Counted from the first letter of the stretch, positions 26,789-57,508 are shown. The stretch is 64,000 bases of DNA from Nitrospirota bacterium (GCA_963701855.1 CAVPBK010000012.1:43083-107082), one strand, 5' to 3'. Notes: generated by a model not told the origin, from the letters alone. Numbers and translations: made by a program.

Positions 26789-28353
26789 TCAGAGTGCCAG
26801 CATCTTCACCACTTCCTCGTACCTCAACTTCTCCAATCCCTCCCGCAACAGACTCAACGGTATGGTCTCTCTGTGAACGTACGTCTGCCCCTGAACATTC
26901 GCCGCAGAGTGTCCGGCGATGATCTCGCAGAGATTTTGAGCGCAGCCAGCTCCTATGAGTTTGCTTATCCCTCCGTGCCGCAAACTATGCAGCACAAGAG
27001 CAGGATCAGTCAGACCGGCTTTCGTAACCAACCGACTGAAGACCTTTCCTACCGCATCACTGAATCCATTCGCTCCGTGCTTCAGCGTTGGGAACAGCCG
27101 TGCATGACCAGACGCCTTGATTTCCTCCACGTACTCCATGAATCCACGCTGGATCAAACTTGAATGGATCGGCACTCGTCTTTTACTCCCTTCGTTCTTC
27201 AGGCTTTGCTCCGCCCCTTCATCGGTGATACTCAGGAACGGGATATCCTCCGCCACGCCAATATCCTTGATTGCGAGTTGCCCCGCTTCCTCCCGCCTGC
27301 AGACTTGGAACAGACAGAGCAGCGGAAGCCAGTAGTTTGCCGCGTTGGTCCTGCGTTGCTGCATGAACGCCTGCGAGCCAAACACGGCCAACAGCTCAGC
27401 ATCAGTAAACGGTCTACGCTTGGTTGCTTGTTTCTTCGCTTGCTGTTTGTTCGGCGCAAGACCACGGACGGGATTAAATCCATCAACGATGAAGCCTTGT
27501 TGCTCTGCCCATTTGAAGAGGCCTGAGAGGGATGACAAGTGTTTGATGCAGGTTGCCAGCGACAGACCGCGAGTCTGAAGCATGTGCTCTTTGTACGTGC
27601 GACAGTCGGCCTTCGTGAGCGACCCGATAGGCCGGTCACCACCTACGACCTCCACGAATCGTTCGAGTTCCGACTTCACTTGTGAGTCAGTACGTGCGGC
27701 CCGCGTGTTTTCTTGGAAGTACAGTTTGACGACCTCAGAGAAGGGTTTGCTTGGTGATGGCTTGGTCGGTGTCAATGGCGGAGCCACGGTAGGACGTGAT
27801 GGTGGACGTTCGAGATAGTTGCCATCCCACCGAGCTTGATCAATGCGGAGCACGTCTTGCTTGGCAACCAACAGACGCCGACAAAGCCTCTTAAACTCAT
27901 CGCTGTCATGTGCCAACAGAGGGAACCCCGCAGCCGTCAATACTGCATCCGCTTCCTTCTCGATAAGCTGATAATCCGAACCCAGTAATGCACACTCGAC
28001 CTCCTGGCGTTGGTCCGCTAGTACTTCGGTCACGTTGTCTCGGTACTCGTCACTGATTGGGGCATTCAGCGCCCGCAATCTTCTGCCTCGTCAAGCTCCG
28101 CAGTCATCCAGCGTGTGACCAGTTCTTCTCGTTGGTCGTTAGTCATGTAGGCTCCCTTGATCTTGAGTGTAAGAAACAGCCGATGAATCCTGGCCGTCCA
28201 TTGAGCGGAACGGATCACGGCCAGCTCACGATCAATCGTCCTGAGAGACCGCCACAGTTGCCTGCGACCCTTGAAATACGGTTGGAGTCTGCCAGGGATG
28301 AAGGCGCGATGGTAGAGAATCTTGTCTTTGAACCGGGGAAATACGGTAGCCAT
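26789..28353 (-). pseudogene. DUF6538-type tyrosine integrase, frameshifted near 28070
   Basis: N-terminal R..IP..L.....R.LWRSLRT.D; catalytic R (CRREE), K (LKN), HSLRH, GH, Y. Confidence 0.88.
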
Positions 28354-28450: not shown

Positions 28451-28528
28451 TGGTGTCCCCAACGGGATTTGAACCCGTGTTACTGCCTTGAAAGGGCAAT
28501 GTCCTAGGCCAGGCTAGACGATGGGGAC
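28451..28528 (-). tRNA. tRNA-Glu(TTC)
   Basis: GTCCCCA acceptor stem, CTTTCAA anticodon loop, GGTTCAAATCC T-arm, encoded CCA. Confidence 0.97.
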
Positions 28529-40972: not shown

Positions 40973-41017
40973 TGGTGAGCCGGCTGGGACTCGAACCCAG
41001 GACCCTCGCCCTAATAG
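40973..41017 (-). repeat. att: tRNA-Lys 3' half
   Basis: 37 bp identical to 49840-49876; T-arm and CCA present, no 5' half. Confidence 0.85.
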
Positions 41018-42142
41018 CTCGAAAAGATGGATTCACACAAGGGCTTGGGTTTGTGAAGGTTTCCCCGTTTTCTCTGCTAGCAAGGACTTGAGATAAATCT
41101 AGAGATCCCATTAATTCTGTAGAATGCAAACCGTTGTGGAAATTTTTAGCACAAATTTAGCACGGCGACGTTCTTGCTTGGTGTTTTCGGCCTATCTATG
41201 GGGAGGAGCGCAAGATGTTGCTGGCCTACGCGATAACGTCGCGGCTCGCAAAGGTTGTGTTTGATCAGCTCAAAAAGCGGCGATTCGTTGATGGCAGCCA
41301 GACCCACCAGCTCTGCATTTTGGAATTGCGTGATTTGTTTCACAGGAGTGTCCTTTCGCTGTTCGATTGGTTTGGTCCCTTCACCAACTCGATCTCATCC
41401 ATGCGCCAGGTCTTGCCAAAATACGGCGAGCATTCACTTGATTTCCTGGACTGGTCGGCGAAGGGCCAACAGACCCTTCTTTCTTTGGCACTCCGGGAGC
41501 CTATACTTTTGCCAGAATCTGGTCAATTCATAGGTACGCTCAGGTGTTGTCTTAGCGGGCGGAAATGGTTGTACGACCCTGCCGCCGTGCCCCGCTATAT
41601 TGAATGCACTGCTCCACTTAATTCGTAGACAATTCCCTGAAGATTGCTAATCATCAATTCTACAGAGAATCCATTCTTTTCGAGTCTCCATTTCTAATGA
41701 GACAGCCGGGCGCACTCGATCGTAGCTCTGGTAAGAGACCTCGGACGTCTTCCACTACGATGTGTTTAGAATATTTTCAGTGGGTTTGATATATCCAGCG
41801 GACTGAGCCACCTGTCTATATTTTAAGCGGGGTACAACAGGCTAGCTGAAATTCGAATACCGCTGGTCTCCTGCCCGGAACACCTGCAAATATTGTGGCA
41901 ACCAAACCCTCGAAAATTCAGTCGAGTCTTTTTCAAGAAAGACGATCGGACCTGTCTCCACCGAGTAACAGACTTTCCTTCACCCTATCCTAGGCGGTCT
42001 AGCCAAACTGCAGCGCACCATGCAGATGATAGGCGTTGCAAGAAATTCTGCAATTCATTGACTGATGAGTGTGCTTTGCTACGCTGCCCGGTACGTAACG
42101 CAGTTTGAACGTATTCGTCTAGTGCCCCTATCCAAGATCATC

Positions 42143-49172: not shown

Positions 49173-49391
49173 AATCTGGAATCCTGTACGCGACTGTGCG
49201 CAGAGTACTTTCTGGAAACTGTAACACGGGCGGCATGTTTTGCACGGAAAAGTGCTGTTTGGAAGTAAAGGGGAAAGAGTGTGTTGTGCCCGGTTAAAAA
49301 GTAGACGGGTGGCTTATTCAGCTGGATGTATGAAGCCCAATGAAATTATTCAAAACCCATCGTAGCGGAAGACAGCCGAGGGGAGTCCTGA

Positions 49392-49790
49392 TGATGATGC
49401 AGAGTAAGAACGGCACTCACCGCACGATCCCCTTAAATGCAACCGTATACGAGCTGCTCGCGGCCAAGCAAGCGACGACGAAAGCCGCACGCGGCCCCGT
49501 GTTCACAACCCCTCGCGGGAATGAACTTCGCGTACGGTACCTGGCTCGGGAGTTTTGCGAGGCGCGCGATCGGGCAGGCATTCCAGACTTCCGCTTTCAC
49601 GACTTGCGGTACACGCTCACCACACGCTTAGTGCAACGTGGCGTGGATTTGTACAAGGTACAATGTCTGCTCGGTCACAAGACCAGCCAGATGACGCAAC
49701 GCTATGCGCATCATTCGCCGGAGAGTTTGCGAGAGGGTGTGAACGTGTTGGATGGGCCGCACCCGCAGCGAGTTAGCACACGGAGCGATT
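49392..49790 (+). pseudogene. tyrosine integrase C-terminal remnant
   Basis: SKNG..R.IPL, FRFHDLR, LLGH, MTQRYAH. Confidence 0.85.
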
Positions 49791-49839
49791 GTGACCGGTC
49801 TTACGAGAGCAAGAACGCTTGGAAGTGAATGATTGTAAA

Positions 49840-49884
49840 TGGTGAGCCGGCTGGGACTCGAACCCAGGACCCTCGCATTAAAAG
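49840..49884 (-). repeat. att: tRNA-Lys(TTT) 3' half
   Basis: reverse complement CTTTTAATGCGAGGGTCCTGGGTTCGAGTCCCAGCCGGCTCACCA. Confidence 0.85.
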
Positions 49885-50407
49885 AGCTACTCAGACACTT
49901 ACTACTAAAGATGATCGAGTGAGACCAATTGATACGATCCCACTGAAGTCATGCAATATTTCTTTCCTCCACTCCATTACCATTTACGACCTAGACATAT
50001 CTCTGATCGTCACCAAAACCGCTACCGAACCGCAAAAAAACCGCTACCCATGAAAAGGTTCTACTGTGTCGAAGGCGAGGTTTGACTTTGGGCTATCTCC
50101 GCTTCTCCAGCGGTGACACAGATCTCATAGGCATCAATCATGATTCTCAAAACATCTGGAGCCATTCCTGGGTGATATGGAGTGAAACAGAGTCAGCGGA
50201 GGATAGTACTGCTATACAACCGTTTTACGACCGCAACTTATATCTAGTTCGAGTCCTGTCTGCACACAGGGTTCAAAAACCTCTCTCGAACTCAAGACTC
50301 GATAGGTCGATTTTTCCAGGGCTTTGACGTATCCTTCCGACTGTTCCAAAAACGAATCTTTCTGACAAGGAGCGTCAGCCCGTGAAGGAAAACCCGGAGG
50401 AGGAATC

Positions 50408-51755: not shown

Positions 51756-52742
51756 TCATGAGTCATTTAGCAGGAGGACTTCTTCCATGAGTCGTTCGAG
51801 ATCTTGGCTCATGAGATTGATGTCGGATTCGAGAAGATCCAACATGGCGGCTCGAGCACGAAGGTCTTCAATCTCAGAGGAGCCTCCCTCACCAAAAAAC
51901 AGAGCCGTACGACGCTGCTCCAGCTCCGAACCTGCCTCCCCAAACCGACCGTCTTGACGCCAGCGGATGATGAGGGATTCTCGTAAGGACCGCTGCGCAG
52001 GATCGTCGGGTAACGGACGGGTCAAGTGCCGCCATACTGAAGGAGGAATCAGCGCTGGTTCTTCAGGCGCCATCCACACCTCCTGCAAGAGGTTACGCGC
52101 GTGTCGAAAGTCATAGTGGGTGTCGTCGAAAAAAGCAGACAGGCCGAACCATGTTGCCACACTGCCTCCGAATATCGCAGCGGCGGCTGCGGCCGTTTCT
52201 TGCAATGCGAGTTCCAATGCGCCAGCGACGATGCCGATCATGGCATCACCCACGATGGCGATGAGTGTGTATTGTCGAATGCGTTTGTCACGCACCTCGT
52301 GCAACCCATCCGCAAGCTGATCGGCTCGTTCTTCTTCGCAATCGGCTTCGGCAGCGGCTCTGGCGACATCCAGAAAGGCCAGTAATATGCGATTCGAGAG
52401 CTGTTGCTGCACGTGAAGGCGTTCGATGGTCATGGCCCCACCATGTTGATCCGCCTCTGCCTTCAGAATCGTCAGTTGCGCGAGGAGATCTTTGACGCCG
52501 ATACTGTCGGCGATACTCTGGGATTGCGGAGAAAATCGCCCGGCAAGCACATCAGGATTGACTGGAAGGCGCTCCGAGCCAACAGGCATGCGAGAGAGGT
52601 TTTGGTTGAGAGATCGGTGAACGGGCGAGACAGGTCCGCACCGACGGTCCACAACCTCGGGGTGAAGCAGAGGGGTTGGTCTCGTAGCACACCCGGAGAC
52701 GAGGCCCAACAGGAGTACTGCGATAAGCAGGATGGTGGCCAC
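51756..52742 (-). CDS. putative lipoprotein
   Basis: VSGC lipobox; hydrophobic hairpin mid-protein. Confidence 0.7.
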   Translation of the reverse strand: MATILLIAVLLLGLVSGCATRPTPLLHPEVVDRRCGPVSPVHRSLNQNLSRMPVGSERLPVNPDVLAGRFSPQSQSIADSIGVKDLLAQLTILKAEADQHGGAMTIERLHVQQQLSNRILLAFLDVARAAAEADCEEERADQLADGLHEVRDKRIRQYTLIAIVGDAMIGIVAGALELALQETAAAAAAIFGGSVATWFGLSAFFDDTHYDFRHARNLLQEVWMAPEEPALIPPSVWRHLTRPLPDDPAQRSLRESLIIRWRQDGRFGEAGSELEQRRTALFFGEGGSSEIEDLRARAAMLDLLESDINLMSQDLERLMEEVLLLNDS

Positions 52743-53101
52743 TCAGTATCTTCCTCATGAGTACGCCAGACGAGTTTCGACTGGATGGGTTAGTCTCTTC
52801 GAAACCGCGTGGACTAAGCCTAAACCGTAGCGTGACGATAAGTATGCGTAGAATTAGACCGCGATAAACTAGGGGAAACCCTGGAGGGCAGAACAGTCCA
52901 TCATTGGAATGGTATTCGATCATTTTTCGCATTTTTGAGGAAACCACTTTGGGCTTCGTCGATGGGCTGCTGGGGCTCACTCAGTCGGATTGTGCTAATG
53001 AAATGGACCCAGCCTTCTTCCCACACGAGCCTCACCGGAGGCAAGATGAGTGTTGGTGAGCGCGCCACACACACTCATGGTCAGGAAGAAGGGAGGGGAC
53101 T

Positions 53102-54118
53102 ATGCATATCTCGACATTGGGGATCGATTTGGCAACGCAGGTGTTGCAGTTGCACGGGGTGGATGCGCGAGGGCATGCGGTGCGCAGCCGACGCGTGAAG
53201 CGCAGTCAGGTGATGGAGGCGGTGGCGAGCCTGCCGCCTTGTGTGATCGGGATGGAGGCCTGCGGGAGTGCGCATCACTGGGGGTGAGTGGTTGAACAGC
53301 TCGGGCCTACCGTCAAGCTGATGAGCCCCCAGTACGTCACGCCCTATGTCAAGACCAACAAGCATGCTGCTCGAGACGCAGAAGCGATCTGCGAAGCGGT
53401 CAGTCGGCCCACCAGGCGCGGTGTCTCGATCAAGACCGTGGAACAAGCCGATCTGCAGGCGTTACACCGCACACGATCACTCCTTGTCAAACACCGGACC
53501 GCCGGCATTAATCAGATTCGGGGCCTGTTGGCCGAGTAGGGGTTGGTGATTGCGCAATCCCCGGAGAAGGTCCGGCCTGCCGTCGTCCGGTTTCTGGATG
53601 ATGCGGAGTCGGGATTGACCACGTTTGCCCGAGAGACCTTCGCCGAGTTGTACGCGCAACGGCCGGAGCTCGACTCACGCATCGAGCGGGTGACGCACCG
53701 GGTGGATGGCGTGTACCGGACGCATCCGGTCTGCCGGAAACTGGCGGCGGGGCCGGGGATTGGTCCGTTGACGGCCACGGCACTGCTGGCGACTGTCGGG
53801 CGGCCTCAGGCGTTTCACAACGGCCGGCATCTGGCGGCCTGGTTGGGCCTGGTGCCTCGGCAATATTCCAGTGGCGGTAGGGAGCGGTTAGGCGGGATTT
53901 CGAAACGCGGGAGTCGGTCTGTGCGGACGCTCTTGATTCATGGGGCGCGCGCCGTCGTACAGCGTGCCGAGCGGAGGGTTGATACGCAAGGACGGTGGCT
54001 GTGGGCGCTCAAATGCCGCAAAGGCACCCATGTCGCCGCGGGGGCCTTGGCCAACAAAAACGCCCGGGTAATCTGGGCCTTGTTGGCCCATGATGAGGTG
54101 TATCGACCACCCGCCTAG
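53102..54118 (+). pseudogene. IS110/IS1111 transposase with two in-frame stops
   Basis: GIDLA, MEAC, GIGP, WLGLVP...SSGG, ISKRG; stops at 53285 and 53537. Confidence 0.92.
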
Positions 54119-54400
54119 GTACAGGCAGGGGGCAAACCGGTCTTCGTGAAGAGACACGAGCCGATCAGACAAGGATTCACACCGAGGAGTGCAGCGCGGA
54201 GCATCCGTGATGACATCACAGGGACACCCGGCGCGTTCAGACCCTGGACACATTGTCGGCCCGGACGAGGCCGTTGTGCTCATGAGGAGAACGCGCGCGT
54301 ATGTCATCAAGGCCCGGACACATCGGTTGTCCATCGAGAGGCCGGATATTATAGACGCTGCCCTGCATTGTGGTTCATCGCGTGATACCCGCCGTTGCAC
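54119..54400 (+). ncRNA. putative seekRNA/bridge RNA
   Basis: position typical of IS1111; contains TTGTGCTCAT (54274-54283) equal to the reconstructed target. Confidence 0.7.
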
Positions 54401-54544
54401 CGGAGGCTGGGTCCATATATCATTTTGTGCTCAACTCCACCTCACTCCACCAACGGTGTCCACAATCAGGGGAAGATCAGACCACCTTGGCTGGAGTGGG
54501 CCTGAGTGAGCCTGAGTAGGCTGGAGTAGGGTGGTGACAAGGCT

Positions 54545-54693
54545 TTCCTAAACCGCTGGTCCTACGACTAGGCCTGTTCACCAATCATCTGATTTAAGGA
54601 CAGTGAGAGTTAGTTTTGGCAGGCTGAGATTTCAAGAGCTTGGAGACTTGAATTTTTGCAGGTTTTGTGGACAGCCGACCAGCGGTTTAGGAA
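54545..54693. repeat. 17-bp perfect inverted repeat of a tRNA-Arg(CCT) anticodon-arm-like core
   Basis: TTCCTAAACCGCTGGTC (54545) / GACCAGCGGTTTAGGAA (54677). Confidence 0.8.
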
Positions 54694-54991
54694 CACGAAC
54701 TCGGCAGAAACACCAGGTCAAAGCAGACCACGCTATACAACGGCAGGCCCAATCCTATCAAGGGGTTTGTGGCCTGCTGTTGCTTCCCCTCCCCTCCTGT
54801 GTTATCCCCTCACCGTGACTCTTTTAGGATCGGAGCCGTGACTGGAATCCGGACACGGAAACGAGCGGCTTGTTCACTTTTCAACGGTACAAACTGATTG
54901 TCACCTTTCTCAATGGAGCCCTTATAGCTTTCGCGTCGCGCCACTTGTTCGCGGAGGCCGCATAATCAGAAGGGTGAGAAGGAGGCCCGCG

Positions 54992-56833
54992 ATGGCGTAC
55001 CAGCCCATTGAAAATTACGGCATCATCGGCAACATGCGGACGGCGGCGCTCGTCGGCATGAACGGCTCGATCGATTGGTTCTGTATTCCCTTCTTCGATT
55101 CACCGAGTGTTTTTGCCGCCATTTTGGACGACCAGAAGGGGGGCCGGTTCGAGATCGGCCCTCGCGATGGTGGCATCCGCACAAAACAGTTCTATTGGCC
55201 TGAAACCAACGTGTTGGTCACCCGCTTTCTCTCGCCGGACGGCGTCGGAGAACTCGAAGATTTCATGCCGGCAGGCGTGCCTCGCGAATCGCCCTGGCTG
55301 GATCATTTGATTCGGCGCGTCAGAGTTACGCGAGGGACACTGGCCTTTCAGATGTGCTGCCGTCCGGCGTTTGATTATGCGCGGCTCCCGCATCGGGCGA
55401 CGATTGGAGAACATGGCGCGGTCTTTGAGTCGGCCCTCCTGAGCCTGGAGTTAACGACCGCCGTTCCGCTTTCCTGCGACGGCGAGAGCGTCCACGCGAC
55501 ATTTGCGCTTCAGGAAGGCGAGGAGGCGATTTTCGTCCTGCGCCCCTTGAAGGCCGGAGAGGAGTGCCGTCGGTCCCCCTCCAACACCGAAACGCAGGAG
55601 GTCTTCGAACACACGGTCGATTACTGGCATCGATGGTTGTCGAAGTGCAGCTATACCGGTCGGTGGCGCGAAATGGTGTACCGATCGGCGCTGACGCTAA
55701 AACTGATGACCTTCGAACCGACCGGAGCGATTATCGCCGCGCCGACCTGCAGCCTGCCCGAGTCGATCGGCGGCGGACGGAATTGGGACTATCGCTACAC
55801 CTGGATTCGCGACGCCGCCTTTACGTTGTATGGCTTGTTGAGAATCGGCTTCACGGAGGAAGCCCACGCCTTCATGCAATGGCTGGATGCGCGCGCCGGC
55901 GAGGTCGAGGCCGACGGCACACTGCAGATCGTCTATGGAATCGACGGTCGCCACGATCTCACGGAGCAGACTCTCGATCATCTGGACGGCTATCGCGGCT
56001 CCCGGCCCGTCAGGATCGGCAACGGCGCCTATTCGCAATTACAACTCGATATTTTCGGGGAGCTGCTCGATTCGCTCTATCTGTACAACAAATATGTCAT
56101 GCCCATCGGCTATGACGCCTGGGCGCGCATCCGGCACCGCCTGAATTGGCTGTGTGACAATTGGCAGCGGCAGGACGAAGGCATCTGGGAAGTGCGCGGA
56201 GGCCGGCGTCATTTCGTCTATTCCAAAATGATGTGCTGGGTGGCGCTGGACCGGGGAATTCGCCTGGCTGATAAACGGTCGTTTCCGGCCGATCGCGACC
56301 GATGGCAGAGTATCCGGGATCAGATCTATGAAGAGGTCATGTCCAAGGGATGGAGTCAGAAACGCCAGGCGTTTGTACAGCACTACGACGGCGACTCGCT
56401 CGACGCGTCGAATCTCATCATGCCGATGGTATTTTTTATGTCTCCCAACGATCCGCGCATGTTGAGCACGCTGCATGCCATCAATCGCTCACCGAAGGAA
56501 GGAGGATTGGTCTCCGATGGCCTCGTGTATCGTTACGACAGCGGGACCGGAGAAGACGGGCTCGAAGGGCGAGAAGGCACGTTTACCATGTGTTCGTTTT
56601 GGCTGGTGGAAGCGCTGACTCGGGCGGGACATGTCGATCGCGTGAAGTTGACGGAAGCCCGGCTGTTGTTTGAACGGATGCTGGGCCACGCCAATCATCT
56701 GGGGCTGTATGCCGAGGAGATCGGGGGAAGCGGCGAAGCGCTCGGCAACTTTCCCCAGGCCTTCACCCATATCGCCTTAATCAGTGCCGCGTTCAACTTG
56801 GATCGTGCATTGGACGGCAGGCCGCGTAGCTGA
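54992..56833 (+). CDS. GH15 glycoside hydrolase (glucoamylase/trehalase-like)
   Basis: [41 protein letters not shown]. Confidence 0.94.
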
Positions 56834-56938
56834 CCGGTTGCACAAGCTCACCGTGACTCTTTTAGGATCGGAACCGTGACAGAAACCGGAACGGGGGGTT
56901 CGGTTGGAGCTGGAAGCGGTGCTGAAGCGGTTGAAAAG

Positions 56939-56983
56939 TGGTGCCCCCGATACGAATTGAACGTACGACAAACGGTTTAGGAA
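56939..56983 (-). repeat. att: tRNA-Arg(CCT) 3' half
   Basis: reverse complement TTCCTAAACCGTTTGTCGTACGTTCAATTCGTATCGGGGGCACCA. Confidence 0.75.
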
Positions 56984-57508
56984 TGGCAACATGGCGTTTT
57001 TAAAAAGGCTCGGTGTTTCAAATGGTTTCCCCGTTTTTTATTTGAATACCGAAGCTTAAGGGCTTCCTAGTGTCTCTACTGATTCCATTGGTCGTTATCT
57101 GTTTGAACAACTTTTAACACAAATTTAGCACAAGGTCATGGGGTGAACCCCTCTGGTGAGACACGAAAATTAGCACACTCGTGTTGTTCGGTTGTTCTTT
57201 TTCATACTCTTTGCTCCCTCAGATTCAGCGTCTTCGGCTGGCTGAAAAACTGCAGAGTGGCGGCACCGGATAGAAAACTCTCGCAGCTGGCGTTATCGTA
57301 GGGGTTTGCCGGTCTGCTCATGAAGGAGCTGCACGTACTCGCCCGAGACATACTGCACACCCCGATCCGAGTGATGCACCAAGCCAGGCGTCGGCTGGTG
57401 AGTGACCACTGCTTGGCGCAACGCCCGGATCGGCAACCGGCTGGCAGCGTGTTCTCCAGCGCCCAGCCGCTCCCTGTTTAAATATTAAGTAAGGCACAAC
57501 ACGCGACA

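Follow-up and report, generated by a model that had tools for sequence, protein, structure and literature searches.

We looked at an insertion sequence (IS) located in a stretch of 64,000 nt from a Nitrospirota bacterium (GCA_963701855.1, CAVPBK010000012.1:43083-107082). This whole stretch is called the window below, and positions are counted from its first letter (Table 1). The IS interrupts a tandem repeat of the unit TGTGCTCA, close to a tRNA-Arg-like fragment of an attachment (att) core. By its protein domains, its ends and the position of its non-coding region (NCR), it is an element of the IS1111 family (IS110 superfamily). Transposase_20 (Pfam PF02371, C-terminal domain) was found on the pieces of the transposase open reading frame with an E value of 1.3e-25, and DEDD_Tnp_IS110 (PF01548, N-terminal DEDD/RuvC-like domain) on piece 2 with an E value of 7.6e-8. 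The translation contains GLVPRQYSSGG, which is the family motif GL-P----S(T)G, and an intact 338-aa orthologue (locus L007) scored 368 bits with the NCBIfam model NF033542, 'IS110 family RNA-guided transposase'. The 12-bp subterminal inverted repeats (sTIRs) are perfect, since the right one (GGCTGGGTCCAT) is the full complement of the left one (ATGGACCCAGCC), and the transposase frame has 106 bp of non-coding DNA upstream against 301 bp downstream. In the passages of Siddiquee et al. (PMC11187229) that describe the family, IS1111 elements have sTIRs of 11-13 bp, extensions of 7 and 3 bp, a long downstream NCR, and a transposase of 330-350 aa with the same motif.

Table 1. Features of the insertion locus and of the unoccupied target sites in the window, in order of position
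Position	Strand	Feature	Details
40973-41017	-	tRNA 3' half, att core downstream of the 41146-41164 arm	
41146-41164	-	Unoccupied target CGTGCTAAATTTGTGCTAA in second att arm	
52990-52995	+	Left half of target	TTGTGC, first unit of the TGTGCTCA tandem repeat
52996-54419	+	IS1111-family insertion sequence, decayed copy	1,424 bp
52996-53002; 53003-53014	+	IS left end	7-bp extension TAATGAA; 12-bp sTIR ATGGACCCAGCC
53102-54118	+	Transposase pseudogene	338 codons; in-frame TGA 53285-53287 and TAG 53537-53539
54119-54419	+	IS downstream NCR	301 bp
54231-54358	+	Predicted seekRNA/bridge-RNA scaffold	Two internal loops
54231-54238 with 54289-54296	+	Scaffold P1	
54248-54255	+	Putative top-strand target guide	Reads ACACATTG in window copy
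54257-54261 with 54269-54273	+	Scaffold P2 hairpin	
54274-54283	+	Putative bottom-strand target guide TTGTGCTCAT	6 nt left and 4 nt right of insertion point
54297-54300 with 54355-54358	+	Scaffold P3	
54301-54309	+	Putative donor guide, 5' strand of second loop	ATGTCATCA in window copy, ATTTCATCA in sisters
54310-54343	+	Scaffold inner hairpin	
54344-54354	+	Putative donor guide, 3' strand of second loop	ATATATAA in sisters
54395-54419	+	IS right end	-35 TTGCAC 54395-54400; sTIR GGCTGGGTCCAT 54405-54416; extension ATA 54417-54419
54420-54433	+	Right half of target	TCA, TTT, then second TGTGCTCA unit
54434-54543	+	Class A module: imperfect long inverted repeat after target repeat	12 copies in genome
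54544-54561	+	tRNA-Arg(CCT)-like att core fragment TTTCCTAAACCGCTGGTC	
56939-56983	-	tRNA-Arg(CCT) 3' half, att core downstream of the 57114-57132 arm	
57114-57132	-	Unoccupied target TGTGCTAAATTTGTGTTAA in att arm	

Six matches to the IS were found in the genome of the window: the window copy itself, one near-full copy at 83% identity and four fragments. Among 151 sampled genomes of the same family, 12 had a match, G000 being one of them (two matches were scored per genome). Twelve more loci, at 84-92% protein identity and all with Nitrospira, Nitrospiraceae or Nitrospirota in their titles, came from a scan of species representatives, which also gave many loci at 49-59% identity, mainly from Proteobacteria; the transposases of the nearest proteobacterial relatives found are 53-59% identical. 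The transposase frame of 338 aa is open in the sister copies L007 and L018.

When the IS is removed from the window, ...GGATTGTGC joins TCATTTTGTGCTCA... and the uninterrupted tandem repeat is restored, as a preliminary description of this DNA had stated. The joined flanks (8 + 32 nt) agreed at 39 of 40 positions with an uninterrupted paralogous site (C11:9449) and at 34-37 of 40 with seven more sites. No target duplication is present at the insertion site, and the IS boundaries are exact to within one base because a T follows both junctions. In the related copies, left junctions ended in TGTGC in 12/13 and 12/12 cases in two sets, and in 21/21 distinct flanks from Nitrospiraceae once duplicates had been removed. 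The sole miss, in the set of 13, was L023, a 75%-identical fragment with a different left flank, which lies outside the pattern behind the count of 21. Right junctions began with T(C/A)A(A/T/G)TTTGTGCT in 16 of 17 copies, the remaining one (L002) being degenerate, and the orientation of insertion was constant across the Nitrospira-type copies. Altogether, insertion is site- and orientation-specific and occurs without target duplication.

The NCR contains a 10-mer, TTGTGCTCAT, that spans the insertion point in the target. This match had been pointed out in the preliminary description, and the 10-mer occurs only once in the window (0.14 occurrences expected; at least one match in 12 of 100 shuffles). 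When the NCR was shuffled 2,000 times, an identity of 10 nt between NCR and target across the junction arose 5 times. Folding ten closely related NCRs to a consensus left the 10-mer unpaired, with an 8-bp stem (GCGCGTTC with GAACGCGC) on one side and a small GGCC hairpin on the other; this alignment was too shallow for a test of structure, with a compensatory change in 1 of 34 pairs. With an alignment of 30 sequences, which adds the relatives at 53-59% protein identity, compensatory changes were found in 17 of 24 consensus pairs. The fold then comprised two internal loops enclosed by stems, in which the guide positions were unpaired and were the most variable columns. An Rfam scan of 52500-57500 (E up to 1) gave a chance match to a frameshift element only and no bridge or seek RNA family. 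In the sister copies, the top-strand guide ACAAAATG fits TCATTTTGT at 8 of 8 bases. Their second loop corresponds to the IS ends: ATTTCATCA (ATTTCAT) is the reverse complement of the left-end ATGAAAT, and ATATATAA is the abutted right-end/left-end junction ATATA-TAA, the hyphen marking the joint. As had also been noticed earlier, TTGCAC-17-TATAAT results when the right end is joined to the left end, its -10 box lying across the joint. A junction promoter TTGNNN-16/17-TATAAT is predicted from the sequence in all 19 full copies, six of them distant, one having TATCAT.

Guides and targets corresponded from lineage to lineage. In L037, where the target is ACTGC-TGTCCCATAAAC (the hyphen marks the insertion point), the strands of the first loop read TATGGGACAG and then ACTGCTGT; the former is the reverse complement of the right flank, and the latter runs from the left flank into the first bases of the right one. 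The first-loop strands of L040, L095, L063 and L038 likewise match their own targets. The comparison was then made over 21 lineages with distinct targets, L035 being left out as its left end was mis-assigned by the automatic rule. The longest match to the own target averaged 7.7 nt for the 5' strand and 6.8 nt for the 3' strand, against 3.5 and 3.4 nt for the other targets. The own target was the unique best match in 21/21 lineages, and the observed match total was reached in none of 5,000 permutations. The copies of the Nitrospira lineage stand in one repeat, and relatives with other targets carry guides that match those targets, in line with the RNA guidance proposed in the preliminary description: the 10-mer is unpaired in a covarying scaffold and the loops track the targets. 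The order and overlap of the two guide matches are those published for IS1111 seekRNAs, in which the top-strand match lies 5' of the bottom-strand match and the two overlap in the target (PMC11187229, in its account of guide pairing). The same source reports that the guide function of relatives within IS1111 was shown by experiment, and the portion of Durrant et al. on loop structure (PMC11208160) gives the two-strand loop logic and predicts such RNAs in IS1111 right ends.

Covariation at a single position, a C/A guide base and the only one that varies within the Nitrospira lineage, was dropped as a line of evidence: agreement was 8/9 in a first set and 4/8 in a second, the copies being related, so that 8/9 fell to 12/17. 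Some bases at the IS ends also followed the target. The IS left end and the right flank start with one and the same base, T or C, in 20 of 21 lineages (the exception is L053), which fits a core nucleotide shared between them, the IS boundaries being ambiguous by one base. In L019 (G143:C240), the left end starts with TCATGAC instead of TAATGAA, and TCATGAC matches the TCA of the target and the loop sequence CTCATGA of the same copy over 11 nt. This suggests that the first three left-end bases behave as exchanged core.

The repeat into which the Nitrospira lineage inserts, TGTGCT(A/C)A-N3-TGTGCT(A/C)A, occurs about 25 times in the genome of the window, in two contexts that we call class A and class B. 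Class B, with 11-13 unoccupied copies, two of them in the window on the minus strand, has the repeat after a GGGG-TTCA-CCCC hairpin, then about 130 bp of conserved sequence and a tRNA 3' half that starts in the anticodon loop. By comparison with the genome's own genes, the tRNA halves include Arg-CCT, Lys-CTT and Thr-CGT. This layout is that of the island-side junction of elements integrated in tRNA 3' halves. The preliminary description had seen in two places of the window a mirror image of the insertion locus, and both 40973-41164 and 56939-57132 indeed hold a tRNA 3' half together with a minus-strand repeat. A sense tRNA 3' half was also present in the right flank of 7 of 17 IS copies, where six begin 143-146 bp past the insertion point and one at 33 bp; a 23-nt tRNA match on the opposite strand in L029 was left out of this count.

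The repeat is tied to integrase genes as well. Of 22 integrase loci of the genus, 18 have its reverse complement at the 3' end of the integrase gene, in line with the association with integrase att sites put forward earlier. In 17 of these 18 loci the repeat is inside the integrase open frame, usually read as ...STNLAQ..., and the stop codon comes about ten codons past the repeat, followed by the reverse complement of a tRNA 3' end (tRNA seen by eye in 20/22). In one arm, the repeat thus precedes the att core by about 145 bp; in the other, it comes about 45 bp past the end of the tRNA. Taken together, the 22 loci and the class B layout indicate that the att core has the repeat on either side, oriented alike, with its units spaced at 11 bp. 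In L122 and L123, the repeat DNA is kept in another reading frame, indicating conservation at the level of DNA and not of protein. The island integrases have Phage_integrase and Int_N domains, and in the four that were tested an N-terminal Arm-DNA-bind_2 domain (PF12167) was borderline, with 20.5-22.1 bits for a cut-off of 22. From its position, its phasing and this borderline match to an arm-binding domain, the repeat is best read as a putative arm-type site of the integrase.

In L084, the IS lies directly after the integrase stop codon. With the L084 integrase as tblastn query, just one of the 17 IS right flanks gave an integrase match. The N-terminal two thirds of the L084 integrase frame (L084:3834-4802, minus strand) resemble a reverse-transcriptase segment (...YIPKADGRQRPLGV...), which we take to be similar to group II intron proteins. 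This suggests that another element interrupted the L084 integrase. In the window, a second tandem pair, TGTGCTAATTTTCGTGTCTCA, was seen at 57140-57180 (minus-strand reading) on the far side of the GGGG-TTCA-CCCC hairpin, meaning that the arm holds up to four repeat units. The far repeat pair is inverted in L007.

The window copy itself is inserted in a class A site, made of the repeat, an imperfect inverted repeat of about 100 bp and a tRNA-Arg-like core of only about 18 nt. The IS lies on the island side of this core. The preliminary description had placed a tRNA-Arg core about 115 bp away. Its likeness to tRNA-Arg stood, as TTTCCTAAACCG at 54544-54555 recurs unchanged in the genome's own tRNA-Arg(CCT), where it makes up the anticodon loop and 3' stem; the distance had to be corrected, to 112 bp from the repeat end and 125 bp from the insertion point. 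ARAGORN called no tRNA gene at 54544-54561, so the core there is a fragment. The class A inverted repeat is built of units like CTCCAGC and CTCACTC (copies at C11:9452, C6:408193 and C2:8392, for example). Inverted copies of 17 bp of the tRNA-Arg-like core (TTCCTAAACCGCTGGTC), at 54545-54561 and 54677-54693, flank a segment of about 115 bp, which is opposite in orientation to its homologues after the class A modules at C2:8392 and C6:489002. The inverted segment may reflect a past inversion mediated by an integrase.

We propose that the window holds a decayed IS1111 element which, very probably, was guided by RNA into the tandem repeat of island att arms. An active IS of this lineage would be directed by an RNA of about 130 nt (seekRNA or bridge RNA) from its own downstream NCR. 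In the target loop, the 3' strand (the 10-mer) has the same sequence as TGTGC-T(C/A)AT, and its predicted partner is the bottom strand on both sides of the cut; for the 5' strand, pairing is predicted with the right flank's top strand. The donor loop would hold two corresponding guides, directed at the abutted IS ends, and circularisation would make a promoter across these ends. The DEDD transposase would then recombine the circle into the target in one orientation and without duplication, between C and T of the first repeat unit (target TGTGCTAAATTTGTGCTAA). This unit belongs to TGTGCT(A/C)A-N3-TGTGCT(A/C)A, a likely conserved cis-element of Nitrospira tyrosine-integrase islands that appear to integrate into the 3' halves of several tRNA genes. 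Being on the island side of the core, the IS would be carried along when the island is excised. That the lineage is aimed at an att-arm repeat had been suggested in the preliminary description, and the junctions all fall in one repeat, at a fixed distance from tRNA cores and at integrase genes; binding of the repeat by the integrase is the presumed part of this picture.

Several observations weigh against this reading. The element is known here from sequence alone, and this applies to the RNA, the circle and transposition. In the window copy, the top-strand guide fits the flank at 6 of 8 bases and the 3' donor guide has one extra T (a 1-nt insertion); the imperfect 5' target guide and 3' donor guide fit a dead element. 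No working copy was seen in the genome of the window, where all copies and fragments are truncated or bear stops (the two longest frames were read); the second, near-full copy also has in-frame stops. Empty sites had been asked of related genomes: paralogous ones were found, as described above, and no orthologous one was found when the 696-bp left flank was searched in 61 genomes of the genus. In the only match to this flank (G175), homology ends about 110 bp short of the insertion point, and a search with 50 nt of joined flanks was without a match because the left flank is unique. Covariation of the 10-mer with the target, also expected earlier, was present across the 21 lineages and failed within the Nitrospira lineage, in which the fit of the variable C/A base to the flank (12/17) is not significant. 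On the side of the islands, the Arm-DNA-bind_2 cut-off was reached in only one of the four integrases, the same arm has a second direct repeat (of the ATGGAATCAGTAGAA type) that could just as well be the arm-type site, and class A has only the short tRNA-like core, with 0/12 copies beside a tRNA gene called by ARAGORN.

The strongest alternative keeps RNA guidance and holds that TGTGCT(A/C)A is not an arm-type site; the repeat would be conserved for another reason, and the IS would use it as a harmless landing pad. It could code for the integrase tail, be a site for an excisionase, a regulator or a host factor, or be part of a terminator by the GGGG-TTCA-CCCC hairpin. In most integrases the repeat does encode ...STNLAQ..., and the competing direct repeat and the borderline domain match fit this alternative too. 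However, the repeat is kept in the other frame in L122 and L123 and also, at a constant spacing of about 145 bp from the core, in the arm that is non-coding, and both arms have it as similarly oriented tandem units with an 11-bp spacing, as an arm-type site would. We regard this alternative as quite possible, although we lean away from it.

An arm-type role of the repeat would also allow a larger claim, that the IS lineage is a dedicated rider on one family of tRNA islands, its guide set to the integrase arm sites of both att arms, one of them within the last codons of the integrase gene, so that it alters excision and travels with the island. If true, the insertion would either push some of the arm sites 1.4 kb away from the core or change the integrase tail, and this would be an RNA-guided interaction between two mobile elements. 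We hold this claim as tentative and rather doubtful.

Another explanation concerns the window site, where the class A module could be a small repeated element, either like a miniature inverted-repeat transposable element or mobilised in trans, and not an island arm. The IS would then have hit a dispersed repeat, as do the family members that insert in repetitive extragenic palindromic (REP) elements. The 12 copies in the genome have unrelated left flanks and no adjoining tRNA gene, and only the one at C6:408193 continues into a full tRNA 3' half. On the other hand, class A shares the repeat and the tRNA-type core with bona fide arms, and most insertions of the lineage are in arms linked to tRNA, class A accounting for 3 of 17 right flanks (L001, L028 and L029). 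Class A is either a decayed arm or a small element of its own, and as an account of the insertion we consider this explanation unlikely.

Finally, that the 10-mer matches by chance or was captured from the target and that the protein alone picks the target is hardly credible, since only the weak covariation within the lineage (12/17) favours it, and against it stand a chance probability of about 0.0025, the own target as best match in 21/21 lineages with 0/5,000 permutations at the observed total, the strong scaffold covariation and the experiments on relatives reported in PMC11187229.

The reading of an IS1111 element guided to att arms was then compared with known systems. The mechanism is the published seekRNA/bridge-RNA mechanism. 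ISEc11 and ISXne4, members of IS1111 whose seekRNA is established by experiment in the sections of PMC11187229 devoted to them, are like the present element in their sTIRs, their 7-bp and 3-bp extensions, their transposase of about 339 aa, their RNA from the downstream NCR, the top-strand match 5' of the bottom-strand match with overlap in the target, and the natural reprogramming between relatives. They differ in that they are directed to a short unique sequence and not, as here, to a tandem repeat in island att arms, and in that they are backed by experiment and the present element by sequence. ISKpn4, ISPst6 and ISPa25 (IS1111) are also RNA-guided elements aimed at the recombination site of another mobile system, with which they ride along; their target is the attC of integron cassettes, unlike the tRNA-island arms here, which include the 3' end of the integrase gene. 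IS4321 and IS5075 (IS1111), as far as the accounts available describe them, occupy a conserved cis-site at the end of a mobile element in fixed position and orientation, but their host is a DDE transposon of the Tn21 family and the site is its terminal inverted repeat. IS621 (IS110 group), in the parts of PMC11208160 on its bridge RNA, likewise has a two-loop RNA with target and donor loops and staggered pairing to both strands; it differs by having the RNA in the left end upstream of the gene, very short sTIRs and another order of guides.

The target classes named in the relevant passages of PMC11187229 and PMC11208160 for IS110/IS1111 are short linear sites, integron attC, REP elements and the inverted repeats of the Tn21 family. 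No description of IS1111 or IS110 elements targeting att arms or integrase ends was found among the papers listed by searches of the open-access literature, in agreement with the earlier impression that this target had not been described. The target class, att arms of tRNA-integrating Nitrospira islands, is therefore apparently new. It would add tyrosine-integrase att arms to attC, Tn21 ends and REP elements as natural targets of RNA-guided IS1111 elements. Moreover, the 21 lineages are a natural series of reprogrammed guides on one scaffold, useful for working out the pairing rules of IS1111, and the repeat marks a conserved cis-element, a candidate arm site, for an island family that is widespread in Nitrospira, a group in which genetic work is difficult.

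Two other integrase sequences were seen in the window. A different, intact-looking integrase of 429 aa (26789-28078, minus strand) lies beside tRNA-Glu(TTC) (28451-28528, minus strand), and no TGTGCT repeat was found near it in genome-wide scans. At 49340-49828 (plus strand), a C-terminal integrase fragment of 162 aa with a Phage_integrase match reads toward the reverse complement of a tRNA 3' end (49841-49885) and keeps a degenerate trace of the repeat (GTTAGCACA...), so that 49340-49885 looks like a decayed island end.

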